Positions 9,696-31,899 of a stretch of 64,000 nt of DNA are shown here, piece after piece. Positions within the stretch are counted from its first letter, which is position 1. Each line of letters begins with the position of its first letter. Source of the stretch: Thermoplasmata archaeon (GTDB taxonomy: Archaea > Thermoplasmatota > Thermoplasmata > Lutacidiplasmatales > UBA184); contig JAKIVR010000003.1 of assembly GCA_022750455.1 (NCBI GenBank), forward strand, positions 4,457 to 68,456, read 5' to 3'. A program made the position numbers and the translations under genes. Under the pieces are notes generated by a model. It made no database searches and had not been told where the DNA came from. It saw nothing but the letters and a program-made list of their open reading frames with translations.

Positions 9696-12600
9696 ATGAA
9701 AGCCGGAGCGTGGTCCACCCAGGTCGCCTTCAGTGTGAGCATCGTCGCGATCCTTCTCGCGTGGGGGATCGCCAACTCCGGGATCTCCGCGACCCCCTCT
9801 CCGACCTCGGTCAACCCCGGCGAAAAGATCTCCCTGCCGACGACGAGTTCGCCGAGCACCCACCCCGCCTCCTCCCCGAGTGCTGCCCCCGACACGTCCT
9901 CCGCGACTCCGACGTTCAAGGATTCGAGCGGCTCGCGGGCGGGTCCGACCCCTGCGACGCCTGGCCCCGCGGCCTGCCCCAATCCACCCATCTTCCTCCC
10001 GATGGGAGCCAACAATCTCCTGCCCCCGTACCCGGCGGTCGACAACACCACGAACTGGGTCGACGGGAGCCCCGGCTGCTTCGAGTTCTTCGACACGGTG
10101 CACGACTCGTTCTCCTCTGCCGAGGTTGGCTCCGGCGACCACTTCGAGGTACCGGTCGGACTGCCGGAGAATCCGGCCGGGAACGAATCGACCATCCTGG
10201 TCGACATCAACGTCGGCATGGTGGTTCAGGGCGACTCGAAGTCCCTCGGCGGCCAGTCGTGGGCTGAGGTCTACTTCGTCCCCGAAACCGGCTCCAACGC
10301 CTGGGACGGCTTCCTCGCCGTCTGGTCGGCGACGCAGAGTACCCTGTGGTACTCCCCTCCGTCGGGAGGGAACCCGGCCAGCTGCGGCGGGGAGTCCCAG
10401 GGCGCCGTCTGGACCAGCGGCACGTATTGCATCGTCGACGCCCTCAACGGCGGCGATGGCGAGAGCCTCGGCAGCTTCGCCGGCGGAGATTCGATGCTCG
10501 TCGCCATGGCCGGCACTCCCGCCGCCTCGAGTGGTATGATGGTCTGGGTCAACGACACCACGACCTCCACGGACACGTCGAACCAGCTGTCGGGCACGGA
10601 CACCAGCAGCGACTTCACGTTCACCCCCGCGTTCAAGAGCGCGTGCCTGGATGCGTGCGAACTGAACTGGTCGGGCGAGTTCGGCCTCGGGGTCGGGGTC
10701 GATCTCTGCGACAGCACGATCATCGGTGGCGACTGCTTCTCCTACGACGACTCGTACTGGAATGAGAGCTCCCCGATGGAGATCGGCGTCCCGGAGTACA
10801 TGTCGGGGGGCACCTACTCGGGCCAGTACCTGGTGCTCGCGCCGCAGTCGCTCTCGGGACACTGCTCCGGGGTGAGCACGATGCCCCCCACCGTCGTGCA
10901 ATGCTCGACGCCCGCGCAATCGTTCGGCTTCTATCCGGCGTGGAGCTTCAACGGCACGGGTCTCAACTTCGGCTCCACCTGGCCGTGGTCGATCGTCACC
11001 TGGGGCGGAGGGTTCGTCGAGTTCGGGACGTACGGGGGGCTGACGGACGACATCCCGCTCTTCCCCGACAATCCGGTGAACTCGTCCGATGACGGCTTCA
11101 TCCCCTCGGGGAGCGGCCTGACGGTCCACGCCCGCATCGCCGCGTACGGCACCGTGACCCAGGCGTCCCTGAACTACACCATCAACGGCGCCGGAGGGAA
11201 CAACCTCACGATGACGCTCACCTCGGGGAACACCGAGGATGGGAACTACACCGCTACGATCCCTTCGGGCGCCGACGGCACGATCGCGTTCCGGATCTGG
11301 GCGACGGACCTCGCCGGGGCGATCGTCCCCGGACCGTCCCCGCCCGCCCACGCCTCGATCGTCTACCGGGGCGCGCTCCCCAACTTCCAGGTCTCGGTCC
11401 TCACCACGCAGCCCGGGTGCGGCGGGGTGCTGTTCAACGGCACGGAGTACGCCGGCGGCCAGGTCATCACGACGACCCCCGGGTACTTCTCCCTCCAGGC
11501 GATCGCGTGCTATCCGTTCGTCTTCGCCAACTGGTGGACGTCACCCGGCGTGCAACCTCCCCCCTCGGTGAGCGGGACCGTCGGGATCTCGGCCTCCGGG
11601 ACGTTGCAGGAGAACCAGACGTACATCCGTCCGGACGACTCCGTGACCTTGGACTCGAACCCGAGCGGTTGCGCGGCCGTCTACGTCAACAACACGGACT
11701 ACACCACTCCCCTGGTCGTCCAGCTCCCCGGTCCCGCGATCCCCGGGGGCGTGGCGGAGTACACCCTCGGCGTCGCCGCGTGCGGCGGCTACGACTTCAG
11801 CGGATGGACCGTCGTGAACGCGGAGCCGTCCGCGGGCGGCATCTCGATCCTCGGGAACAACTTCAATCTGACCGGGAACGGGACGATCACGGAGAACTTC
11901 GTCAGCCTCTCCTCGAACCCTGTCGCGCTCGACTTCGACACGATCCCGGCGTCATGCCCGGGGGTCCTGTTCCAGGGGGTCGGGTACGTCAACGGGCAGT
12001 CGCTCGACGTCCTCCCGAACACCCCGTACGCGATCCACCAGGACCCGTGCGCGCACTACGGGTTCACGAACTTCTCGCTGACGAACGGGCTGACGATTGG
12101 CGACGGCAGCGTCACGGCGGCCCAAGGCGGGATCGTGACGGAGAACAACTACCACCTGACGCAGGTGACGCTCCTCACCCACCCGGCGGCGTGCGGGACC
12201 GTTGATTGGGACGGGGTCGACTACGCGAGCGGCAGCCCCGACTCCGACCTCAACCTGACCAACCACACCGTGCACACCGCGATCGGGGAGCCGTGCGCCG
12301 GCTACTACTTCATCGGCTTCCTCGCGATGGGCGGCGTCTCGGTGCTCGGCAACACCGTCTACGTCAACGCCTCGGGCTCGCTCCAGGCCGACTTCCTGAG
12401 CGGCAGTCCGAACGTCTTCGTCGGATTCCTCACCTCCCCGCCGTCGTGCGGCTCGATCTACCTCGAGGGCCAACAGTACAACAATAGCCAGTACACCCAC
12501 GTCGGGCCCGGCACCGTGTTCACCATCACCGCCGTCGCCTGCACCGACTATGGGTTCGTGTCGTGGATCACCAACTCCGGGGCGACGAACGGGATCTCCA

Positions 12601-20879: not shown

Positions 20880-22400
20880 TTACGGGGACTCCTCGATCTG
20901 GGCCTTCTGCAGGCGGTTGGAGAAGTCGATGAAGACCGTCTTGAGCTCGGTGAACTCCTCGATGGCGACGCTGCCGGCCTCCCGACCGCCGTTGCCGGTG
21001 TTCTTGATGCCCCCGAACGGCAGCTGTACCTCCGCCCCGATCGTCGGGGCGTTCACGTAGGTGATGCCGGCCTCCAGGTCGTCCATGGAGCGGAACGCCA
21101 GATTGACGTTCTGCGTGTAGATCGACGAGGAGAGTCCGTAGTCGACGCCGTTGGCGATGCGGACCGCCTCCTCGTAGTCCCGGAACCGGATCACCGACAG
21201 CACCGGTCCAAAGATCTCCTCGAGGGAGAGTCGGGAGCCGTGCTGGACCGAGAAGATCGTCGGGGCGATGAAGTGACCGCGATCGTAGACGCCGCCGGTC
21301 AACTTCTGGCCTCCACAGAGGAGCTTCGCCCCTTCCGCCTTGCCGATCTCGATGTACTCGAGGATCTTCTGCTCCTGGTCGGCGGAGGCGACGGGCCCCA
21401 TGTCGATGGCGGGGTCCAGCGGGTCCCCGACCTTGAACGTCTTCACGCGCTCCAGGAGCTTCGCCAGGAACTGGTCGTGGATCGAATCCTGGAGCAGGAG
21501 ACGGCTCGTGGCGGTGCACCGTTGACCGGCCGTGCCGAAGGCGCCGAAGAGGACGCCGTCCAAGGCGAGGTCGAGGTTGGCGTCGCCCATCACGATCATC
21601 GGGTTCTTTCCGCCGAGCTCGAGGTGCACCATCTTGAGGTGCTGCGCGCCCCGAACGTTGACCTGTCGCCCCGTGTCGACGCCCCCCGTGAAGGAGACCG
21701 CTCGGACCCGTGGGTCGTCGATCAGGGCGTTTCCGACCGTCGCTCCGGCGCCGGTCACGAGGTTGAGGACCCCGGGGGGAAACCCGACCTCGTGGTACGC
21801 ACGGACGATCTCGGCCGCACAGCCCGCCGTGTTGGACGCCGGCTTCAGCACCACGGAGTTGCCGGCCACCAGGGCCGCGGCGATCTTCCAGTTCGGGATC
21901 GCCGTGGGAAAGTTCCACGGGGTGATGCTGGCGATGACGCCCTTCGGTTGGCGCACAGTGAGGCAGAACTTGTGGTGGAGTTCCGACGGAACCGTCTCCC
22001 CCGCGAGGCGGCGCCCTTCGGAGGCGATGTAGTCGACGAAGTCGATCGACTCCTGCACGTCCCCCAAGCCCTCCTCGATGACCTTGCCCATCTCTTCGGT
22101 CACGAGACGCCCGAGCTCCGGCTTACGGCGCCGGAGAACGTCGGCGACCTGCCGGAGGAGTTCCCCTCGGTGGGGGGCGGGGGTGTCCCGCCACGCCGGG
22201 AACGCCTGCGCCGCGGCCGTGACCGCGCGAGTGGCATCCTCGGCGGTCGCCGAGACGAAGCTCCCCACGAGGGCGCCGGTGGCCGGGTTCTTCGTTTGAA
22301 ATCGAGGGGCGTTCGGAGGCGATTCCCAGGTCCCATGGATGTAGAGTCCGTACTCGGTTGCTGTCAAAGTTCGCACCAGCTCTCTGGAGGGGCTCGACAC
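20880..22400 (-). CDS. NAD(P)+-dependent aldehyde dehydrogenase
   Basis: ALDH family hallmarks: catalytic Glu in ELGGKNP, catalytic Cys in GQRCTA, GxxxxG NAD fold FTGGVDTG, length 506 aa. GTG start. Confidence 0.9.
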   Translation of the reverse strand: MSSPSRELVRTLTATEYGLYIHGTWESPPNAPRFQTKNPATGALVGSFVSATAEDATRAVTAAAQAFPAWRDTPAPHRGELLRQVADVLRRRKPELGRLVTEEMGKVIEEGLGDVQESIDFVDYIASEGRRLAGETVPSELHHKFCLTVRQPKGVIASITPWNFPTAIPNWKIAAALVAGNSVVLKPASNTAGCAAEIVRAYHEVGFPPGVLNLVTGAGATVGNALIDDPRVRAVSFTGGVDTGRQVNVRGAQHLKMVHLELGGKNPMIVMGDANLDLALDGVLFGAFGTAGQRCTATSRLLLQDSIHDQFLAKLLERVKTFKVGDPLDPAIDMGPVASADQEQKILEYIEIGKAEGAKLLCGGQKLTGGVYDRGHFIAPTIFSVQHGSRLSLEEIFGPVLSVIRFRDYEEAVRIANGVDYGLSSSIYTQNVNLAFRSMDDLEAGITYVNAPTIGAEVQLPFGGIKNTGNGGREAGSVAIEEFTELKTVFIDFSNRLQKAQIEESP

Positions 22401-22460
22401 TCTCGGGCCTCAATAAGGAGTCGCCGTCCCGGGGGCCGCACCGGCCGGGTAAGCCGCAGG

Positions 22461-22468
22461 ATTTAAGG
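22461..22468 (+). promoter_or_regulatory. TATA box (ATTTAAGG) for the leaderless aaRS transcript
   Basis: AT-rich octamer in GC-rich context, ~25 nt upstream of the GTG at 22490. Confidence 0.5.
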
Positions 22469-22489
22469 GACGGTCGGGGTAGTTGGGCC

Positions 22490-24004
22490 GTGCCGAACCG
22501 ACTGCGAGCCGAGGTCCTGCTCAGTTCCGCGCCCGAGGGCGGCCGAGCGGCGCTCGAGCCGATCGTCACGGCCCTCGCGAACGAGGCGATCGAGAAGACG
22601 CTGAACCGACGAGGCGGAGGTCGCGTCGTCGAATGGGAGCTCGCGGGTCCGACGTTGTCGATCACGATCGAAGCCCCCGAGGCCCGCCCGCACGGCACCC
22701 TCCTCGCATTCTCCCGCCGGCTCGGGGAAGAGCTCGGCCGGGCCCAGAAGATCGGGGTGCGATCCCTCCGGGCCCCGGAGTACCGCCTCGAGTTCATCCT
22801 CGCCGTCCTCCCGACGACCCCGGTATCGATCCCGATCCCCCACACCCTCACGCTGGACGGTGACCGGGCGACCCTGACGCTCCTCGACCTCGACGAGACC
22901 GCGCTTCGGGAGAACTGGGCGGACCGCGCAGTCAAACTGTTGGAGGAGAAGATCCGCCGACAATCGTACGCCGGCAAGGAGCAGTACTGGACGCTGCTTC
23001 GAGCTCCGATCGCTCGCGAACCGAAGTTCCTCCAGGACCCGACCGAGGCGATGATCAAGCGGCAGTGGGTGCGGGGAGGCCCGACGAAGGGGAAGTGGTT
23101 CCTCGGCCCGTCCGCGGCCCACCTCCTCCGGACGATGGAGCGGATCGCCCGCGAGGAGGTGCTGCTGCCCCTCGGATTCCGCGAGGTCGTGCAGCCCCAT
23201 CACGACTCGTTCGAGACCCTCCTCAAGACCGGCCATCTCGAAGGGTTGCCCGGGGAGTTCTACTACGTCGTCGAACCGAAGAGCCGGGACCCGGCCGTCT
23301 GGGAGCGGTTCACCGACCTCGTGAAGATCACCCAGGCGGTTCCGACCGAGGAGCTGGCCCGGCTCGTCACGGGCCCGACGGCCGTCCTCTGCTACGCCCA
23401 GTGTCCGACGACGTACTGGTGGCTCTCCGGGCGCACCCTCGCGACCGACAGCCTCCCCCTCTTGGTCTTCGACCGGGCGGCCGTCTCCAACCGGTACGAG
23501 AGCGGTGGGCGCCACGGGCTGGAGCGCGTCGACGAGTTCCACCGGATCGAGCCCGTATACCTCGGAACGCCGGAGCAGCTGGTCGCGCTCCGCGAGCGCC
23601 TTCTCGAGAGGTACATCCACGTCTTCGACAAGATCCTCGAACTCGAGTGGCGCACCGCCTGGGTGACGCCGTTCTTCATGCAGCAGGCCGGGGTCATCGC
23701 GTCGGACGATCCCCACCAACGGATCCAGGGGACCATCGATTTCGAGGCGTGGCTTCCGTACCGCGGCACCCGGGAGGGCTCGGAGTGGCTCGAGTTCCAG
23801 AACCTCTCCATCGTCGGGGACAAGTACACGAAGGCGTTCACGATCAAGACGCAGAAGGGCGAGCTGTGGAGCGGCTGCACGGGCATCGGGCTTGAGCGAT
23901 GGATGGTGGCGTTCCTCGCCCAGAAAGGCCTCGATGTGGATGGCTGGCCGGACGGATTCCGCCGCTATGCGGAGCCCCTCCCGAACGAACTCCACTTCCT
24001 CTAG
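22490..24004 (+). CDS. class IIc aminoacyl-tRNA synthetase, phenylalanyl-tRNA synthetase alpha-subunit-like (divergent)
   Basis: Motif 1-like HLLRTMERIAREEVLLPLGF. Motif 2 NRYESGGRHGLERVDEFHRIE (FRxE...EFHxxE). Motif 3 GCTGIGLERWMVAF (GxGxGLER). ~250-aa N-terminal extension as in archaeal/eukaryal PheS. GTG start at 22490, in frame with the track ORF from 22358 (whose 5' end overlaps the divergent ALDH gene, which ends at 22400). TATA ATTTAAGG at 22461-22468. Confidence 0.6.
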   Translation: MPNRLRAEVLLSSAPEGGRAALEPIVTALANEAIEKTLNRRGGGRVVEWELAGPTLSITIEAPEARPHGTLLAFSRRLGEELGRAQKIGVRSLRAPEYRLEFILAVLPTTPVSIPIPHTLTLDGDRATLTLLDLDETALRENWADRAVKLLEEKIRRQSYAGKEQYWTLLRAPIAREPKFLQDPTEAMIKRQWVRGGPTKGKWFLGPSAAHLLRTMERIAREEVLLPLGFREVVQPHHDSFETLLKTGHLEGLPGEFYYVVEPKSRDPAVWERFTDLVKITQAVPTEELARLVTGPTAVLCYAQCPTTYWWLSGRTLATDSLPLLVFDRAAVSNRYESGGRHGLERVDEFHRIEPVYLGTPEQLVALRERLLERYIHVFDKILELEWRTAWVTPFFMQQAGVIASDDPHQRIQGTIDFEAWLPYRGTREGSEWLEFQNLSIVGDKYTKAFTIKTQKGELWSGCTGIGLERWMVAFLAQKGLDVDGWPDGFRRYAEPLPNELHFL

Positions 24005-24067
24005 GGCCGCGTCCCCTCGACGCCATCGATAAGGCCGAGGTCGGGTCCGGAGCAACTCGGAGGACGC

Positions 24068-25807
24068 ATGGCGCAGAGGCGATTGGACGAGTTCTCCGCC
24101 GCCCCGGACGGGGCCCCGATCCGCCTCCCGCCGCCTCCCCGTCCGGACCAGCTCCCGGGGATCTGGCAGGTCGACGACGGATACATCCGGCATCCCCTGA
24201 TCGAGCCGCGAACGCTCCTCGCCCGTCCGTTCCAGCTGGATCTCGCGCGCATCGGCGTCGCCGAAGACCTTCTCCTCGTGTTGCCGACCGGGATGGGCAA
24301 GACCGTGATCGCCGCGTTGGTGGCGGCGGAGGTGCTCCGACGGGGGACCGGTAAGATCCTGTTCGTCGCCCCCACCCGTCCCCTCGTCGATCAGCACGCC
24401 GATTCGTTCGCGAAGTGGCTCGGGCCGACGCGACGGGCCCGTTTCATGGGCAGCGTCCGGGCGCCCGTCCGGGAGGGCTCCTGGGAGGGCGCTGAGGTCG
24501 TCTTCGCCACCCCCCAGATCATCGTCGCTGACCTGACGGCGGGGCGGTACGACCTCTCCTCGGTGGCGCTGCTCGTCGTCGATGAGGCGCACCGGGCCGT
24601 GGGGCGCTACGCCTACGTCCCGATCGCCGAACGGTTCCGTTCCGACCGGTCCCCCGGCTCCCGCTTGCTCGCCCTGACCGCCTCCCCCGGGGGCGAACTC
24701 GAGCGGATCGAGGGCGTCGTGGCGACCCTCGGGGTGACCCGGGTCGAAGCGCGCCACCGGACCGACGAAGGGGTCCAGGAGTTCGTTCCGGAGGTCAAGG
24801 TCGAGACGGAGTGGGTCCAGCTCACGGGGGTCTCTCAGCAGCTCCAAGACTCGCTCCGCCAGGCGATCCATGACGAGGGGGTTCGACTGCAGCGGATGGG
24901 GTTCCTTCGCCGACGCCCCCTGACCTCGCTCACCGTCACGGAGATCCTCCATGTGCGAGCGGAGATCTTCGCCCGGCCCGGTCCGATGGTCCGCAAGTTC
25001 GGGCCGCTGCTCCGGCAACAGGTAATCCTCCACCTCTCCCACGCGATGGAGCGGCTCGAGACCCAGGGGGTCGGTCCGTTCCTCGCCTATCTCGACCGGG
25101 TCGAGGCGAAGCCGAAGAAGAGCCGGGCCGACTCGTCGTTCCTGAAGCGGCCGGAGGTCGTCGCCGCCCGCACCACGGCCGCCGCCTGGCTCGCCGAGAA
25201 CCCGGACGCCTCGCACCCGAAGATCGACGTGCTCCGCCGGCTGGTCGCGGCGGAGCGGGCCGTCCCTCGGGACCGCCTCCCCCGGATCCTCATCTTCGCC
25301 CAGTACCGGGACACCATCGAGAGCATCGTCTCGGCGCTCCAGGTCGAGGGGGTGCGCGTCGAGCGGTTCGTCGGACAGTCGACCCGGGACGCGGGGGACA
25401 AGGGGATGAGCCAAAAGGAGCAGCACCAGGTGCTCGACGACTTCCGGCACGGCCGCTTCGAAGTGATGGTCGCGAGCAGCGTCGCCGAGGAGGGGATCGA
25501 CATCCCGGACGTCGACGTCGTCGTCTTCTTCGAGGCGGTCCCGAGCGAGATCCGGGCGATCCAACGCCGGGGACGGACCGGACGGAACGCCGTCGGACGG
25601 GTCGTGATCCTCCTGACCGAAGGCACCCGGGACATCGGGTATCAGAAGGCCGAGGTCCGCCGGGAGGCCTCCATGGTCCGGGTCATTCGCGGCATTTCGC
25701 GCCGCGGGAGGGCCCGGGCGGCCGCCGACAAGCTCCGGGACGCCGCCGCAGCCAAGGCGGGAGATAAATCCATCGACGGAGCCCCGTTGGAAGAGGAGTC
25801 TAAATAG
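24068..25807 (+). CDS. hef: Hef/FANCM-family DEAH helicase (helicase domains only, no ERCC4 nuclease domain)
   Basis: Motif I LPTGMGKT. Motif II VVDEAH. Motif VI QRRGRTGR. Insert domain between the RecA lobes. Protein ends after the helicase C-terminal domain with a basic tail. Confidence 0.8.
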   Translation: MAQRRLDEFSAAPDGAPIRLPPPPRPDQLPGIWQVDDGYIRHPLIEPRTLLARPFQLDLARIGVAEDLLLVLPTGMGKTVIAALVAAEVLRRGTGKILFVAPTRPLVDQHADSFAKWLGPTRRARFMGSVRAPVREGSWEGAEVVFATPQIIVADLTAGRYDLSSVALLVVDEAHRAVGRYAYVPIAERFRSDRSPGSRLLALTASPGGELERIEGVVATLGVTRVEARHRTDEGVQEFVPEVKVETEWVQLTGVSQQLQDSLRQAIHDEGVRLQRMGFLRRRPLTSLTVTEILHVRAEIFARPGPMVRKFGPLLRQQVILHLSHAMERLETQGVGPFLAYLDRVEAKPKKSRADSSFLKRPEVVAARTTAAAWLAENPDASHPKIDVLRRLVAAERAVPRDRLPRILIFAQYRDTIESIVSALQVEGVRVERFVGQSTRDAGDKGMSQKEQHQVLDDFRHGRFEVMVASSVAEEGIDIPDVDVVVFFEAVPSEIRAIQRRGRTGRNAVGRVVILLTEGTRDIGYQKAEVRREASMVRVIRGISRRGRARAAADKLRDAAAAKAGDKSIDGAPLEEESK

Positions 25808-25835
25808 CCACTTCCGACTCGAACGGCCCAATCCC

Positions 25836-25949
25836 ATGGATTGGCTCCAACTGCTCGCCGCGAACCTCGGTTCGGTGACGTTCACGGTCATTTCGTTGAT
25901 CCTGTTCGCCTACCTCGCCTACGCGATGGCCCGGCCCGAGCGTTTCTAG
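25836..25949 (+). CDS. kdpF: KdpF-like small hydrophobic peptide (37 aa)
   Basis: ATG 25836 to TAG 25947-25949. Sequence MDWLQLLAANLGSVTFTVISLILFAYLAYAMARPERF is a single TM helix. Sits immediately upstream of kdpA. Confidence 0.55.
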   Translation: MDWLQLLAANLGSVTFTVISLILFAYLAYAMARPERF

Positions 25950-25962
25950 GGCAGCGTGGACC

Positions 25963-27633
25963 GTGGTCGAAGTATCCGCTGTCACTGAAGTCCTGCTGTT
26001 CTTTGCCCTCCTGTTGGGCGTCGCGATCCCGTTCGGGTCGTACATGGGTCGGGTGTACACCAACCGACCTATGCTCGGCGACCGGTTCCTCGTGCCGGTC
26101 GAGAGGTGGCTCTACCGGCTGCTCGGCGTCAACCCCCGGGATGCGATGGGGTACCGCGAGTACTCGATCGCGTTCCTCCTCTCCTCGGCGATGATCGCCG
26201 TCTGGACGTTCCTCATCCTCACGTTCCAAGCCTCCCTGTTCCCTGGCCCGGTCCCGTTCACCGCGATGACCTGGGAGACGAACATCCACACGACGGTCAG
26301 CTTCCTCACGGCGACCGACTTCACCCACTTCGCCCCCGAGGTGAACATGACCCAGTGGGGGAACCTGCTCGGCCTCGAGGTCCCGATGTTCTTGGCCCCC
26401 GCGGCCGCGCTCTCCGTCACCGCGGCGTTCGTGCGGGGGTTCATCCGCCACGACGGGCGGCTCGGCAACTTCTACGTCGACATGATCCGGACGACCACCC
26501 GGATCATCATCCCGCTCTCGATCCTCGGAGCGATCGTACTTCTCCTGCTCTCGGTCCCGGCGTCGTACCCGGCGCTCCCGTGGGCCGGTCCCGGCGTCCA
26601 CACCCCCGGATTTCCCGGGCCCGTCGCCGCGATGCAGTCGATCGTCTACGTCGGCAGCAACGGGGGCGGCTGGACGTCGGCGAACGCGGCGTCGGCGCTC
26701 GCGAATCCGTCGATCTGGACCCAGTACATGGGCATGGGGCTGTTCCTGCTCCTGCCGTTCGCCTTCCCGTTCGCCTTCGCGACGATGGTGCGCCGACCGG
26801 GGGAGGCGTGGCCGTACCTGGGGGCCGTGCTGATCACCTTCGCGGTCGGTCTGATCCTGTTCATCTCGTTCGAGGGGGTCGCGAGCCAGGCGGCCGCGGG
26901 GTATCGGTTCGGTCTCGTGCCGGATTCGACGTTCCAGTTCGCCAGCGTCTACTCGAACACGGGGGCGAACAACCTCCAGATCGCCTACGTCTCTCCCATT
27001 CCCCAGATGACGTTGTTATTCGGGATGTTCACCCAAGCGACCCCCGGATCCGACGGGGTCGGGTTCGGTACGCTGCTCGTCTTCGCCCTGCTCGCCGTCT
27101 TCATGGGCGGCCTGATGGTCGGCCGGACCCCGGAGTATCTGGGCAAACACATCAACGTCACCACGATGCGGTGGACCGCTCTCGTCTTACTGTACCATCC
27201 GGCGATGGTGCTCATCCCCACGGCCATCGCGTACCTGGGCGGTTTCGTCCCGCCGGCGGTGGCGTTCGGGAGCTTTCCGGGGTGTGCCTCGGCGACGTGC
27301 ATGAATTCGCACGCCTTCACGACGGTCCTGTACGAGTTCGCCAGCGAGAGCGCCAACAACGGGTCGTCCATGTCGACGTTCAACGACGCCACGCCGTTCT
27401 TCAATCTCATGGGCGCGGCCGTGATCCTGGTGGGCCGGTTCCTCCCGATGCTCGCGATGCTCCGCATCGGCTCGGAGTTCTCGAAGAGCCAACCGATCCC
27501 GCCGGGTCCCGGGACGCTGCAGACGTCGAGCCTGACGTTCATGCTCTATCTCACGGTCCTGCTGATCATCGTCTCGGCGTTGCTCTTCTTGCCGGTGATC
27601 GCGCTGGGCCCGCTCGCCCAGCTCGGAGGGTGA
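25963..27633 (+). CDS. kdpA: potassium-transporting ATPase subunit A
   Basis: 556-aa polytopic protein with KdpA-type organisation. Immediately followed by kdpB. GTG start. Confidence 0.9.
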   Translation: MVEVSAVTEVLLFFALLLGVAIPFGSYMGRVYTNRPMLGDRFLVPVERWLYRLLGVNPRDAMGYREYSIAFLLSSAMIAVWTFLILTFQASLFPGPVPFTAMTWETNIHTTVSFLTATDFTHFAPEVNMTQWGNLLGLEVPMFLAPAAALSVTAAFVRGFIRHDGRLGNFYVDMIRTTTRIIIPLSILGAIVLLLLSVPASYPALPWAGPGVHTPGFPGPVAAMQSIVYVGSNGGGWTSANAASALANPSIWTQYMGMGLFLLLPFAFPFAFATMVRRPGEAWPYLGAVLITFAVGLILFISFEGVASQAAAGYRFGLVPDSTFQFASVYSNTGANNLQIAYVSPIPQMTLLFGMFTQATPGSDGVGFGTLLVFALLAVFMGGLMVGRTPEYLGKHINVTTMRWTALVLLYHPAMVLIPTAIAYLGGFVPPAVAFGSFPGCASATCMNSHAFTTVLYEFASESANNGSSMSTFNDATPFFNLMGAAVILVGRFLPMLAMLRIGSEFSKSQPIPPGPGTLQTSSLTFMLYLTVLLIIVSALLFLPVIALGPLAQLGG

Positions 27634-27634
27634 C

Positions 27635-29773
27635 GTGGCGAACGGAGAGTCCCCCGAGGGCCCGGTCCGCCGCGTGCCCCACACCTCGGTGAGCCGGATC
27701 CTGGCGCATTCGATCCGGCTGTTCCACCCGAAGCGCGAGATCCAGCATCCGGTGATGTTCACGGTCTATGTGATGTTCTGGTTCCTGCTCGTCGTCACCC
27801 TCTTCCCCCAGGCGTTCCCGGATATCGACCGCTCGTACAGCGCCTCGTACTACCTGGCGATCACGCTCATCCTGTTCCTGACCCTGTGGTTCTCCCACCT
27901 GTCGGAGGCGATCGCCGAGGCGCAAGGGAAGGCGCAGGCCGACGCGCTCCGGGAGGTCCGCAGCGGGATCCGGGCCCGCCAGGTCCTCGCGGACGGGAAG
28001 CGCATCTGGGTCGGTGCCGAGCTCCTCCGCGTCGGGGACACCTTGGAGGTCGTGCCGGGTGAGGTCATCCCCCTGGACGGGGATGTGATCCTCGGCGCCG
28101 CGCAGATCGACGAATCGATGATGACGGGGGAGTCCGCGCTCGTCACCCGCGAGATGGGGGGGGACAAGACCAGCGTCCTCGGCGGGACCCACGTCGTCCA
28201 GGGGACCGTCCAGATCCGCGTCACGGCGATCCGGGGCCAGTCGTTCCTGGACCGGCTCATCCGTCTTGTGGAAGCGGCGAACCGGGAGAAGACCCCGAAC
28301 GAGCTCGCCCTGGACACCATCCTGGCGGCGTTCACCATCGCGCTGCTCATCGTCGTCCTCACGTTCCTGTTGCTGATCGCCTCCTTCTCGTACGTCGCGA
28401 TCGACGTCGGCACCGTGATCGCCCTCTACGTCTGCCTGATCCCTACCACGATCGGGGCGCTCTTGCCGGCGATCGGCATCTCGGGGATCAACCGGGTCGC
28501 GAAGGCGAACGTGATCGCCAAGAGCGGCAAGGCGGTGGAAGCGGCGGGGGACCTCGACGTCCTGATCCTCGACAAGACGGGCACGATCACCGTGGGGAAT
28601 CGCCTCGCCGTCCAGTTCATCGCCGCCCCGGATATCTCGGAGAAGGAGCTGCTCACGAGCGCGTTGTTCGCCTCCAGCCTCGATGTCACCCCCGAAGGCC
28701 GCTCGATCGTGCGGCTGGCGGCCCGCCGCGGCGCCCCGAACCTCTCGCTCGCCGAGGGGTCGTACCGGGTGATCCCGTTCACGGCGGAACGACGGACCAG
28801 CGGGATCACCATGACCGACGGCCGGGAGATCTACAAAGGAGCCGTCAAGGCGATCGAGGCGTACGCGGGCGCCCTCCCCCCGAGCCTCGCCGAGGCCGCG
28901 GACAGCGCCGCCCGGGAGGGGATGACCCCGCTGGCGGTCGCGGAGAACAAGCGCATCATGGGCCTCGTGATCTTGAAGGACGTCATCAAGCCCGGCATCA
29001 CCGACCGGTTGCGCGAGCTGCGGATGATGGGGATCCGCACGGTGATGTGCACGGGGGACAACCGATTGACCGCGCTCGCGATCGGTCGGGAGAGCGGCGT
29101 CGACGAGGTCGAGGCCGAAGCGAAGCCCGAGACGAAGCTCGCCATCATCGAGCGGGAGAAGGCGCAGGGCCGGATGGTGGCGATGAGTGGCGACGGCTCC
29201 AACGATGCCCCGGCCCTCGCCAAGGCGGACGTCGGCCTCGCCATGAACAGCGGCACCGGCGCCGCCAAGGAGGCCGGGAACATGGTCGATCTCGACAACG
29301 ACCCGACCAAGCTGATCGAGATCATCTCCATCGGCAAGCAGCTGCTGATCACTCGCGGCGCACTCACCACCTTCTCCGTTACCAACGACGTGGCGAAGTA
29401 CTTCGCGATCATCCCGGCGTTGTTCGTGACCGCCAACGGCGGCTTCCTGGCCGGGGTAGCGGCCCTGAACATCATGGGGCTCTCCGACCCTCACCTTGCC
29501 GTGCTCGCCGCCGTCCTGTTCAACGCCCTGATCATCCCGATCCTCATTCCTCTCGCCCTGTACGGCGTACGTTTCCGACCCCGCAGCGCCATCGACCTCC
29601 TCCGACAGAACGTCCTCTTCTACGGCCTCGGCGGCCTCGTCTCGGCGTTCGCCGGCATCTGGCTCTGCTACGCCGCCCTCAACTGGCTCGGTCGCCAAGG
29701 CTGGTGGCAGACGGTGATCACCGGGATCAACCACAGCCTGCCGTTGATGATCCAGTTCGGAGGCCACCTGTGA
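27635..29773 (+). CDS. kdpB: potassium-transporting P-type ATPase subunit B
   Basis: P-type ATPase motifs: phosphorylation site DKTGTIT, TGDN, GDGSNDAPAL. 712 aa. GTG start 2 nt after the kdpA stop. Confidence 0.92.
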   Translation: MANGESPEGPVRRVPHTSVSRILAHSIRLFHPKREIQHPVMFTVYVMFWFLLVVTLFPQAFPDIDRSYSASYYLAITLILFLTLWFSHLSEAIAEAQGKAQADALREVRSGIRARQVLADGKRIWVGAELLRVGDTLEVVPGEVIPLDGDVILGAAQIDESMMTGESALVTREMGGDKTSVLGGTHVVQGTVQIRVTAIRGQSFLDRLIRLVEAANREKTPNELALDTILAAFTIALLIVVLTFLLLIASFSYVAIDVGTVIALYVCLIPTTIGALLPAIGISGINRVAKANVIAKSGKAVEAAGDLDVLILDKTGTITVGNRLAVQFIAAPDISEKELLTSALFASSLDVTPEGRSIVRLAARRGAPNLSLAEGSYRVIPFTAERRTSGITMTDGREIYKGAVKAIEAYAGALPPSLAEAADSAAREGMTPLAVAENKRIMGLVILKDVIKPGITDRLRELRMMGIRTVMCTGDNRLTALAIGRESGVDEVEAEAKPETKLAIIEREKAQGRMVAMSGDGSNDAPALAKADVGLAMNSGTGAAKEAGNMVDLDNDPTKLIEIISIGKQLLITRGALTTFSVTNDVAKYFAIIPALFVTANGGFLAGVAALNIMGLSDPHLAVLAAVLFNALIIPILIPLALYGVRFRPRSAIDLLRQNVLFYGLGGLVSAFAGIWLCYAALNWLGRQGWWQTVITGINHSLPLMIQFGGHL

Positions 29774-29871
29774 GCGCCCCGTCCCCCTTGACGGACCCGA
29801 AGGAGTCGGGGAGCTCGATCCGCCCGATCTCGATCGGGGACCGCTCGCGCGTTCCCGAACCCCCTCCGACG

Positions 29872-30261
29872 ATGTCGATGTCCCGGCACCTCCGTGCGGG
29901 GCTGGTCTTCTTCGTGATCATGATCCTGTTCGCGGGCGTCGCGTATCCTCTCGGGATCGCCACGCTCGGCTGGGAGTTGCACTCCGGGCCCAGCACGACC
30001 CCGGTCGCCTCGGACAATACGACGGCGCCGTCCAACAACAGCACGGGAAACTCGAGCGCGAACGCCTCGGTCATGTTCGACGGATCGAGGTCGCCATCGA
30101 TGCCGGCAGGTGCCGGGCGACCGGGGGCCCCTTCGATCGCCTCCGCCCCGTGGCCCCAAACCTACGTGTACCTGCCCGGCCTACGGACCTCCGTCGAATT
30201 CCCGACGCCTCCCGCGCCGTCGCGGGGGATCGTCGCGGGCGCCGACGCGATCGCACGGTGA
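29872..30261 (+). CDS. kdpC: KdpC-like membrane anchor, truncated/divergent (130 aa; soluble KdpC domain absent)
   Basis: N-terminus MSMSRHLRAGLVFFVIMILFAGVAYPLG matches the KdpC N-terminal TM (LRPAL...GVxYPL). The remainder is an S/N/P/A-rich low-complexity tail with N-x-S/T sequons. No KdpC C-terminal motifs in any frame. Confidence 0.5.
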   Translation: MSMSRHLRAGLVFFVIMILFAGVAYPLGIATLGWELHSGPSTTPVASDNTTAPSNNSTGNSSANASVMFDGSRSPSMPAGAGRPGAPSIASAPWPQTYVYLPGLRTSVEFPTPPAPSRGIVAGADAIAR

Positions 30262-30267
30262 ACTACC

Positions 30268-31077
30268 ATGTACAAGCAGATCCTGATCCCCGTGACCGGC
30301 CCCGCCGAGGTGGAACCGTTGATCGGGTTCGCGGCCCAGCTCCTCGAAGCGGACGGTGAGATCCGGCTCCTGCACGTGATCTCCAACGAATCGCTGACCG
30401 ATGTCACTCGGCAGTGGCGCTCGTCCGTGAACATCGTCATCCCGGCTCACGAAGCCGGCGCGGCCCTCGACGTGCGCGTCGAGCCCGAGGTCCGCTCCGC
30501 CCACGATGTGGCGACCGAGATCCTCGAGCGATCCGAGACCGGCGGGGTGGACGCGATCCTGATGACTCTCCGGGGCGCCCGCCGGGAGAGGAACCCGTTC
30601 GTCGGCCACACGGCGAGCTCCATCCTGCACCACGCCACGTGCGACGTGCTCGTGGTGAACCGCCTCGCCCTCGCCGAAAAGAGCATCCGTCGGGTCCTGG
30701 TGCCGTCGCTCGGCACCGGTCCGCCGCCGAAGGTGCTCCGACTCGCCGAGGAGATCGCGGTCCACAATCAAGGGGTCCCGATCATCACGCTCGCCATCTC
30801 GCCGCGCGGCGATGAAGGGGGTTCGAACCGTGCGCCCCCGTCTCGGACCCCTCGCGGGGTCCCGATGCAGATGCACCGCTCGTTCTTCTCCGACGCCATC
30901 CTCGGCCGCCGACGCCAGCTGCCGCGGTTGATCCTCTCCTCGGCCGCCCGCGAGAAGTTCGGCCTGTTGTTGGTCGGGGACGACCCGACGTCCGACACGG
31001 GATCGATCCTGACCCGCACCTTCCTCGACGAACTGTTCCGGTCGGCGCCGTGCCCCGTCGTCGCCCTCCACGGCTAG
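30268..31077 (+). CDS. tandem universal stress protein (UspA) domain protein, KdpQ-like
   Basis: Two Usp-like halves: MYKQILIPVTG...LLHVIS and RRVLVPSLGTG...GLLLVG. Position directly after kdpC resembles haloarchaeal kdpFABCQ. Confidence 0.8.
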   Translation: MYKQILIPVTGPAEVEPLIGFAAQLLEADGEIRLLHVISNESLTDVTRQWRSSVNIVIPAHEAGAALDVRVEPEVRSAHDVATEILERSETGGVDAILMTLRGARRERNPFVGHTASSILHHATCDVLVVNRLALAEKSIRRVLVPSLGTGPPPKVLRLAEEIAVHNQGVPIITLAISPRGDEGGSNRAPPSRTPRGVPMQMHRSFFSDAILGRRRQLPRLILSSAAREKFGLLLVGDDPTSDTGSILTRTFLDELFRSAPCPVVALHG

Positions 31078-31089
31078 GCGGACGGGCCG

Positions 31090-31899
31090 ATGAGCGTCCT
31101 CTGGTTCGTAGGCCTCGGTCTCGCCGGCCCCCAGGAGATCCCTCCTCGGGTCCGGCAGCTGACCGCCGAAGCCGGTGCCGTGTTCGCCGAAGAGTACACC
31201 AGCCGGGTGAGCCCGGGAACGATGGACGCCCTAGAGCGGGAGGTGGGGCGTCCGATCGTTCGGGTCGACCGCTCCGCGTTGGAGGCCGAGGGGCTCGTCC
31301 GGGAGGCGCTCCATCACCACGCGCAGGTCGTCCTGCTCGTGGCCGGAGATCCTTTCGTGGCGACCACCCACGTCGCGCTCCGGGTCGCGGCCGAGTCGTG
31401 GGGACACGAGTGGCGGTACGTCCCCGGGGCCACCGTGGCCACGGCCGTCCCCGGATTTCTCGGGTTGCAACAGTACCGGTTCGGGCGGACCGTGTCGATC
31501 CCGTTCCCGGAACCGAATTTCACGCCTCGCTCTCCGCGGGACGCGATCGGGAGGAATCGGTCGGCGGGCCTGCACACCCTCGTGCTCCTCGACCTCCGTC
31601 CGGACCTGGACCGGTACCTCACGGCGAACGAGGCGCTCCGGATCCTGATCGAGCAGGATGCGTCGTTCCCGCCCCCCCTCTTCCCGCCCGAGCAACCGGT
31701 GGCCGTCGCCGCTCGCGTCGGCCGCGACGACGCCGCCGGATGGTTCGGTCCGATCGAGGCGCTCTCGCGGGCCGACTTCGGCCCACCGTTGCACGCCCTC
31801 GTCGTCCCGGCGCTCCCCCTGCATTTCGAGGAGGCGGCGGCCCTCGTGAGATTCCGCCTCCCGGAGGACCGGCGCTCCCGGCCCGCAAGCCCGGCCTAG
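31090..31899 (+). CDS. dph5: diphthine synthase (tetrapyrrole-methylase fold)
   Basis: N-terminus MSVLWFVGLGLAGPQEI...AEEYTS matches the Dph5 start M.LY.IGLGL...E.YTS. Length 269 aa. Confidence 0.85.
   Translation: MSVLWFVGLGLAGPQEIPPRVRQLTAEAGAVFAEEYTSRVSPGTMDALEREVGRPIVRVDRSALEAEGLVREALHHHAQVVLLVAGDPFVATTHVALRVAAESWGHEWRYVPGATVATAVPGFLGLQQYRFGRTVSIPFPEPNFTPRSPRDAIGRNRSAGLHTLVLLDLRPDLDRYLTANEALRILIEQDASFPPPLFPPEQPVAVAARVGRDDAAGWFGPIEALSRADFGPPLHALVVPALPLHFEEAAALVRFRLPEDRRSRPASPA

Follow-up and report, generated by a model that had tools for sequence, protein, structure and literature searches.

KdpFABC is, to our knowledge, the only pump in which a channel-like subunit is combined with a P-type ATPase. 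Its KdpC subunit is regarded as essential in Escherichia coli, and has been proposed to serve as a periplasmic gate or filter, as a tuner of K+ affinity akin to a beta subunit, or as a structural chaperone. Despite several crystal and cryo-electron microscopy (cryo-EM) structures, its function is still called unknown or elusive (PMC9651954, PMC8385062, bioRxiv 10.1101/2025.03.04.641403). In the literature that we searched we found no description of a natural loss or truncation of KdpC. Here we describe a kdp locus with a reduced kdpC gene (kdpC′, 29770-30261, forward strand, as are all features below) on contig JAKIVR010000003.1 of a Thermoplasmata archaeon, in a stretch of 64,000 nucleotides that we refer to as the window. 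The genomes closest to the window are the ‘AcS’ genomes of Candidatus Lutacidiplasmatales from acidic forest soils. Most members of this order carry Kdp, which has been linked to pH homeostasis via a reversed membrane potential (PMC9287336). In our reading, the locus encodes a functional KdpFAB pump whose C subunit is minimal and whose KdpA has been remodelled on its outer side; to this reading we assign a probability of about 0.6. It builds on sequence-level evidence, presented here, for the orthology of the membrane anchor, the loss of the periplasmic domain, the conservation of this state across lineages, the pattern of selection, and paired changes in KdpA. As far as the searched literature shows, a naturally reduced KdpC with matched KdpA changes is new.

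The locus, which comprises five genes (25836-31077), shares with the canonical KdpFABC of E. coli (structures 5MRW and 6HRA, cited in PMC6255902) its operon order, the catalytic motifs of KdpB and the filter motifs of KdpA. Also shared are a kdpC gene directly 3′ of kdpB and a single N-terminal KdpC helix with the motif G-x-x-Y-P. Unlike the E. coli protein, KdpC of the window lacks the periplasmic domain (Pfam profile ~36-180) and has a Pro-rich cytoplasmic leader. Its KdpA is shorter by 16 residues before D3 and carries a two-cysteine insertion before D4, and the E. coli regulators KdpD and KdpE have no counterpart in the window.

The short open reading frame that follows kdpB has no Pfam match above the cut-off (24.1 bits). 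Its sole family match is to the NCBIfam KdpC model NF001454 (E = 0.0057; 16.3 bits, with a cut-off of 178), over profile positions 1-35 of 193, which correspond to the membrane helix. Positions 29848-29970 are likewise the only part of the window matched by six full-length KdpC proteins from related loci (tblastn, E = 2e-4 to 9e-4). These results agree with an earlier note on this DNA, according to which only the N-terminal transmembrane segment of KdpC is retained. The same note had reported no periplasmic-domain motif in any frame of the gene, and this holds more widely: tblastn with the six related proteins and E. coli KdpC yielded no match to the soluble domain (profile ~36-180) in any frame of the 64-kb window, and no second copy of kdpC there. 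Nor did the same queries reveal a hidden KdpC domain beyond the anchor in any frame across 22 related loci.

The descent of the anchor is visible at the level of profiles. A profile of nine anchor-only proteins aligned with one of 17 full-length KdpC proteins at an hhalign probability of 97.5% (E = 6e-12), and the alignment is limited to residues 25-74. It covers a clade-specific cytoplasmic motif, the helix and a Y-P-L motif, and ends precisely at the start of the soluble domain. In an AlphaFold2 (AF2) model the membrane anchor RHLRAGLVFFVIMILFAGVAYPLGIATLGWELH (29884-29982), which includes the G-x-x-Y-P motif, forms the sole helix (residues 39-67); the rest is disordered, and the model as a whole has a mean predicted local distance difference test (pLDDT) score of 52.7. 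G+C content at third codon positions (GC3) is 0.91 in the anchor. The basic residues R-H-L-R precede the helix and, together with the position of potential glycosylation sites behind it, would fit the usual KdpC topology with the N-terminus inside and the C-terminus outside. Taken as a whole, 29770-30261 is very probably a conserved, reduced kdpC orthologue.

The start of the gene is likelier to be GTG 29770 (163 amino acids, as in the NCBI annotation L3K03_00950 = MCI4322588.1) than the ATG at 29872 given in the earlier note (129 amino acids). The GTG overlaps the kdpB stop codon by 4 nucleotides, and such an overlap, mostly also of 4 nucleotides, was seen on checking coordinates in at least 12 related loci; moreover, the orthologue P0004 has no Met where ATG 29872 aligns. 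All KdpC proteins of Lutacidiplasmatales, reduced or full, have a Pro/Ala-rich cytoplasmic leader of 17-70 amino acids before the helix (29770-29883 in the window; also loci L004-L012, L069 and L113-L118). In its final ~12 residues (PP.HS..GH.RA) this leader is conserved from one KdpC class to the next, and a leader of this kind is absent from the KdpC proteins of E. coli and Halobacterium salinarum.

Searches of 5.8 billion proteins and 1.84 billion cluster representatives recovered relatives of KdpC′ that are all short (141-168 amino acids when re-read from the start overlapping the kdpB stop). Every relative with a readable contig (L001-L004, L085-L087) sits between kdpB and a gene for a universal stress protein (USP). 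The anchor-only gene is present in nine assemblies of independent origin (NCBI, JGI and Logan), namely the window, L001-L004, L085-L087 and P0125 (tag L3K13). A comparison with the kdp loci of related archaea, which the earlier note had proposed, hence finds the anchor-only architecture recurring among relatives.

Across the order, KdpC occurs in three states. Full-length KdpC is encoded at 20 loci, comprising eight of the ten related GTDB genomes (L005-L012) and 12 metagenome contigs; in the GTDB genomes it measures 209-248 amino acids, and that of L006 matches Pfam at 147 bits over profile positions 2-180. The database holds 736 full-length KdpC homologues. At the other end are the nine anchor-only loci, including the window, with Pfam matches of at most 19.5 bits over profile positions 2-38 and a gene ~150-250 nucleotides shorter than a full kdpC. 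Partial KdpC proteins of 127-170 amino acids are encoded at seven loci (L069:8103-8615, L113:8957-9340, L114:8835-9290, L115:8822-9280, L116:8701-9144, L117:6928-7398 and L118:8847-9260). They consist of leader, helix, a conserved extracellular stretch of ~30 amino acids (DPSAANGSLTYxPNGTVNGSSLLPPGTNST) and a Pro/Ala/Gly tail. Their homology to full KdpC stops ~30 to 60 residues into the extracellular part (L006 residues 92-123). The L069 protein, the only partial member scanned, passes the Pfam cut-off with 32 bits over profile positions 2-55. Because these seven loci are intermediate between the full and the anchor-only state, a stepwise reduction in one lineage fits better than a one-off accident.

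The sister Lutacidiplasmatales with full-length KdpC (L005-L012) have the same neighbours as the window (helicase - kdpFABC - usp - dphB) and a KdpC with leader and helix that is rich in sequons (N-x-S/T), but differ from it in a complete PF02669 KdpC (147 bits), a long KdpA D3 loop and the absence of the cysteine insertion. The partial class shares with the window the KdpA D3 deletion and cysteine insertion, the neighbours and a low-complexity tail. It differs in keeping the ~30 conserved extracellular residues and an unchanged KdpA D1 region (TTNTDF). A metagenome scan with KdpA returned only lineages with a long D3 loop and no cysteine insertion; full KdpC was confirmed 3′ in 12 of them, and no further reduced loci emerged. 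The anchor-only clade is monophyletic in the KdpB tree (100%), and a single origin of the partial and anchor-only classes is likely. The KdpA tree and shared KdpA indels join the partial locus L069 to the anchor-only clade (78%), whereas in a KdpB neighbour-joining tree L069 branches outside the rest of the Lutacidiplasmatales (92%). The conflict could stem from an error in the trees or from recombination in the operon.

Selection on the operon was estimated from the ratio of nonsynonymous to synonymous substitution rates (dN/dS) by the Nei-Gojobori method, with the window and L001 as reference pair and residues 38-78 taken as the anchor. For this pair, dN/dS is 0.056 in kdpA, 0.055 in kdpB, 0.039 in usp and 0.06 in the KdpC′ anchor, compared with 0.52 in the cytoplasmic leader and 0.63 in the tail of KdpC′. 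The corresponding protein identities are ~96-97% for KdpA, KdpB and USP, and 69% for KdpC′. Over four pairs in the subclade of the window the anchor gives 0.03-0.11, and for L004-L087, a pair with saturated dS, 0.16; across other pairs the leader ranges over 0.22-1.1 and the tail over 0.47-0.85. From the low values of kdpA, kdpB, usp and anchor relative to the tail we conclude that, since the split, the pump and the helix have been tightly constrained and the tail has drifted. There is no extra relaxation of kdpA and kdpB in the anchor-only clade (dN/dS 0.055-0.29) relative to the clade with full KdpC (0.07-0.28). The view that Kdp is not expected to function without the KdpC soluble domain, taken in the earlier note, finds no support in these values.

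KdpA of the window (25963-27633; 556 amino acids; PF03814, 447 bits) is a derived form of the channel-like subunit. It scores 325 bits with the NCBIfam equivalog TIGR00680, below the cut-off of 387.7. Three of the four filter motifs are kept (NGGG in D2, NTGA in D3, NNGS in D4), and that of D1 is altered from TNTDF to TATDF (filter region SFLTATDFT, 26299-26325); the glycines of the filter are intact. In an alignment of KdpA from all loci with E. coli and Hymenobacter as outgroups, all 12 KdpA proteins that go with a reduced KdpC show a deletion of 16-17 residues in the loop preceding the D3 pore helix. In the window the deletion junction falls between SQAAAG and YRFG (26884-26913). The deleted segment corresponds to E. 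coli residues ~313-328, where the motif EGKESRF or VGQETRF is conserved from bacteria to archaea. The same 12 of 12 proteins contain an insertion of ~9 residues, two of them cysteines (C-x4-C), in the loop that precedes the D4 pore helix (FGSFPGCASATCMNS, 27265-27309). Neither change occurs in the 20 loci with full KdpC (the D3 loop of L111 is not covered), and the D3 deletion is absent from E. coli and Hymenobacter. In a wider alignment of 136 KdpA sequences, made up of the 120 best database homologues and 16 from the loci, the D3 deletion was found in 25, all of which have the cysteine pair (C-x4-C in 24, C-x5-C in one); the remaining 111 have neither.

A further change separates the anchor-only clade from the rest: its D1 flank reads SFLTATDF, a form found solely there, while the corresponding sequence is SFTTNTDF in lineages with partial or full KdpC, and SFVTNTNW in E. 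coli. The Asn replaced in D1 corresponds to E. coli Asn112. If the M1-P-M2 topology standard for the transporter superfamily is applied, both altered loops lie on the outer face of KdpA round the filter entrance, and published structural work puts the KdpC domain at the entrance to the selectivity filter. That the loop changes compensate for the lost domain we hold as possible rather than probable.

These observations can be combined into the following scheme. The kdpC gene would have been inherited vertically and, in one clade of Candidatus Lutacidiplasmatales, cut down to a Pro-rich cytoplasmic leader, a single helix and a disordered extracellular tail. With the whole periplasmic domain gone, the pump would run as KdpF-KdpA-KdpB-KdpC′. 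The KdpC′ helix may pack against KdpA and keep the complex assembled, and this would be the only function for which KdpC cannot be spared. KdpA may have had its outer mouth rebuilt to manage without the domain, by a shorter D3 loop and an added D4 hairpin, probably stapled by a disulfide, and in the anchor-only clade also by a change of two residues beside the first filter strand. N-glycans on the KdpC′ stretch just outside the membrane may cover the mouth of KdpA. In its most general form the scheme would hold that the periplasmic domain of KdpC is dispensable and the helix its sole indispensable part. The domain would have been shed in two steps, the KdpA outer mouth changing at each, with loss of the D3 loop and gain of the disulfide hairpin followed by the change in the D1 flank. 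We regard this general form as tentative, its odds falling somewhat short of even.

A mainly structural role is plausible in light of the published work, which describes KdpC as static during the reaction cycle and calls its function unknown or elusive (PMC9651954, PMC8385062, PMC6255902, PMC12629597, bioRxiv 10.1101/2021.01.09.426067). That a helix-only lineage has been under selection as strong as that on the catalytic subunits favours such a role for the helix. A likeness may be drawn to other single-helix partners of P-type ATPases, among them stabilising ‘lipid-like’ peptides such as KdpF and the beta subunits of Na,K-ATPase, in that the helix may mainly stabilise a complex; KdpC has been compared with beta subunits before (PMC6255902, PMC10654040). 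KdpC′ differs from KdpF, however, in its unrelated sequence and in its long tail outside the membrane, and the locus retains a kdpF of its own.

Several points weigh against this scheme. All sequences are derived from metagenomes. Gassel and Altendorf are said to have reported in 2001 that C-terminal truncations of E. coli KdpC are non-functional. KdpA changes and KdpC reduction coincide without exception, but the association goes back to one or two evolutionary events and is suggestive, not statistical proof. The tail evolves at a dN/dS (0.47-0.85) compatible with a largely unconstrained remnant. The window spans 64 kb of its genome, and the contigs from relatives are likewise incomplete.

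The earlier note had weighed a degenerate KdpC, through sequencing frameshift or pseudogenisation, against a lineage-specific minimal C subunit, and both the comparative and the selection data side with the latter. An indel in an otherwise full kdpC would be a natural suspicion, as frameshifts occur in metagenome-assembled genomes and high G+C leaves wrong frames open. It is refuted by the same short gene with the same neighbours in nine assemblies from NCBI, JGI and Logan, at protein identities of 42-69%, by the failure of tblastn to find a KdpC domain in any frame of the window or of related loci, and by the length of the gene, which falls ~150-250 nucleotides below that of a full kdpC. Another idea is that of a dying Kdp, in which loss of the domain inactivated the pump and the operon is becoming a pseudogene. 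The essential status of KdpC in E. coli speaks for it, as does the near-neutral tail. It is nevertheless strongly disfavoured: kdpA, kdpB, anchor and usp diverged after the loss of the domain, and their dN/dS values (0.04-0.06 for window and L001) bespeak strong purifying selection at a level equal to that in the sister lineages with full KdpC; moreover, the nine lineages contain no frameshifts or stops, and the catalytic and filter motifs of the window are intact.

If the pump works, the domain might yet be supplied by a full KdpC, or a separate soluble KdpC domain, encoded elsewhere, the short gene being a leftover anchor or having another role. The limited genome coverage mentioned above leaves room for such a gene. 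Among the 20 KdpC matches sourced from NCBI, only two accessions come from the same project and neither falls in the L3K03 or L3K04 range, a coverage too thin to weigh either way. Against it, neither the window nor the related loci (~10-14 kb each) hold a second copy, and the constraint on the anchor, equal to that on kdpA and kdpB, is hard to explain for a leftover. Furthermore, a KdpA loop conserved from E. coli to archaea has been lost exactly where KdpC is reduced, which is unexpected if a full KdpC docked there. Orphan kdpC genes are not an arrangement that we know of. We consider a KdpC supplied from elsewhere quite improbable, and think it somewhat probable, from these sequence data, that the complex pumps K+ without one. 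It might finally be that the helix alone suffices, and that the 92-residue tail with its sequons and the changes in the KdpA loops arose as neutral by-products that compensate for nothing. The fast evolution of the tail, its variation in protein length (141 to 168 amino acids), the lack of structure in the AF2 model and the tendency of high G+C to leave frames open by chance would all be accounted for. This account is unlikely, since it does not explain why all nine proteins carry, at a matching position immediately outside the membrane, a sequon cluster that exceeds the shuffled expectation, why coding-type GC3 is retained and a short aromatic motif recurs, or why none of the 25 variants of the KdpA insertion lacks the two cysteines (spaced C-x5-C in one). 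The preferred reading remains that of a functional KdpFAB pump whose C subunit has been reduced to a minimum.

On that reading, the clade amounts to a natural deletion experiment on a subunit of open function, and bears directly on what KdpC does. It implies that the role of the KdpC domain is conditional or replaceable. Should the domain prove dispensable, the three-state series points to the KdpA surfaces that it serves, and supplies ready-made constructs for testing. There is also a practical side, in that pipelines scoring with KEGG or Pfam will report these genomes without kdpC, and may call Kdp incomplete in archaea of acid soils.

The tail of KdpC′ is fast-evolving and disordered, yet not featureless. 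The earlier note had described a tail of 100 residues with N-glycosylation sequons; the sequons are confirmed, and the actual length is 92 residues. Five of them (NTT, NNS, NST, NSS and NAS; residues 83-98, 30016-30069) stand just outside the membrane in the window. Each of the nine anchor-only proteins has 2-5 N-x-S/T sequons, every one within the first 40 residues of the tail, and this clustering exceeds that in composition-matched shuffles (P ≤ 0.05 in nine of nine, ≤ 0.003 in five of nine). N-glycans are probably attached to the tail. Its GC3 in the annotated frame (0.82-0.86) is near that of the genes (0.87-0.94), with 0.63 and 0.70 at codon positions 1 and 2, which indicates that the tail is translated. 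Near the C-terminus lies a semi-conserved aromatic motif, PQTYVYL in the window (30154-30174) and PTFLY, PTFVY or ERLLYE in other members. A 533-residue repeat protein returned by the search of cluster representatives (P0128) was rejected as a spurious low-complexity match.

As the earlier note had stated, kdpF, kdpA and kdpB are intact and contiguous, with a single nucleotide between the kdpA stop and the kdpB start, and each has its family match. For KdpF (25836-25949; 37 amino acids) these are PF09604 (22.8 bits, cut-off 21.2) and TIGR02115 (E = 7e-6); kdpF was also detected by tblastn in eight of the ten related genome loci (L004-L012 and L069). KdpB, the P-type ATPase subunit (27635-29773; 712 amino acids), matches TIGR01497 at 808 bits (cut-off 528). 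Alignment with E. coli KdpB finds its motifs TGES, DKTGT, TGDN, GDGxNDAPAL, IPTTIG and NDVAKYF all intact, and the K+ site residues (E. coli Asp583 and Lys586) conserved. The Ser of TGES is kept in the window (28124-28135); it equals E. coli Ser162, phosphorylation of which inhibits the pump at high K+ (PMC9651954).

The gene at 30268-31077 encodes a tandem USP of 269 amino acids and lies directly 3′ of kdpC, as it does in every related locus long enough to show this. The protein has two PF00582 stretches (73 bits for the whole; 17 bits, E = 0.009, for the second half alone). In H. salinarum, the gene VNG_RS11195 on pNRC200, which encodes a 272-residue tandem USP with two PF00582 stretches directly 3′ of kdpC, has been named kdpQ and described as a positive autoregulator of Kdp (PMC8303175). 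The kdpFABCQ cluster of H. salinarum resembles the locus of the window in this gene of ~270 amino acids and in having no kdpD/E nearby; it differs in its full-length KdpC (216 amino acids, 190 bits) and in a USP identity of only 24%. The likeness to haloarchaeal kdpQ seen in the earlier note is borne out by size and position, and by a BLASTP match (E = 2e-5, 24% identity over the first domain). Its observation that KdpD and KdpE are absent is true of the 64-kb window, in which neither E. coli KdpD nor KdpE had a match. Position, size and domain layout thus agree with KdpQ, and a relationship in sequence specific to KdpQ appears weak: a tblastn search of all plasmids with the window USP (E ≤ 1e-3) did not have KdpQ on pNRC200 among its matches. 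A relation of the USP to E. coli KdpD was also considered and dismissed, as the two have no meaningful similarity. By analogy, the USP protein is probably a KdpQ-like regulator of the operon in place of KdpD/E.

The best plasmid matches of the window USP were haloarchaeal tandem USPs under amino acid permease annotations or, at two loci inspected, beside cation:proton antiporters. At these two loci (L088:6974-7864 and L089:6974-7858) the tandem USP is flanked by cation:proton antiporter genes on one side and an MscS-type channel on the other, with a diadenylate cyclase close by. There are hints here that this type of USP is more broadly linked to ion homeostasis, possibly via cyclic di-AMP (c-di-AMP).

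The helicase gene, kdpFAB, kdpC, usp and dphB are common to all three KdpC classes, and the order aldehyde dehydrogenase, seryl-tRNA synthetase, Hef-like helicase, kdpF-A-B-C, tandem USP and diphthine synthase is conserved across Lutacidiplasmatales (22358-31899 in the window; also L087 and L113-L118). In L004 a masked or undetermined stretch (9900-9960; X in translation) breaks the diphthine synthase gene 3′ of usp. Given this conserved order, the kdp cluster looks old and vertically inherited, and not the product of a recent transfer.

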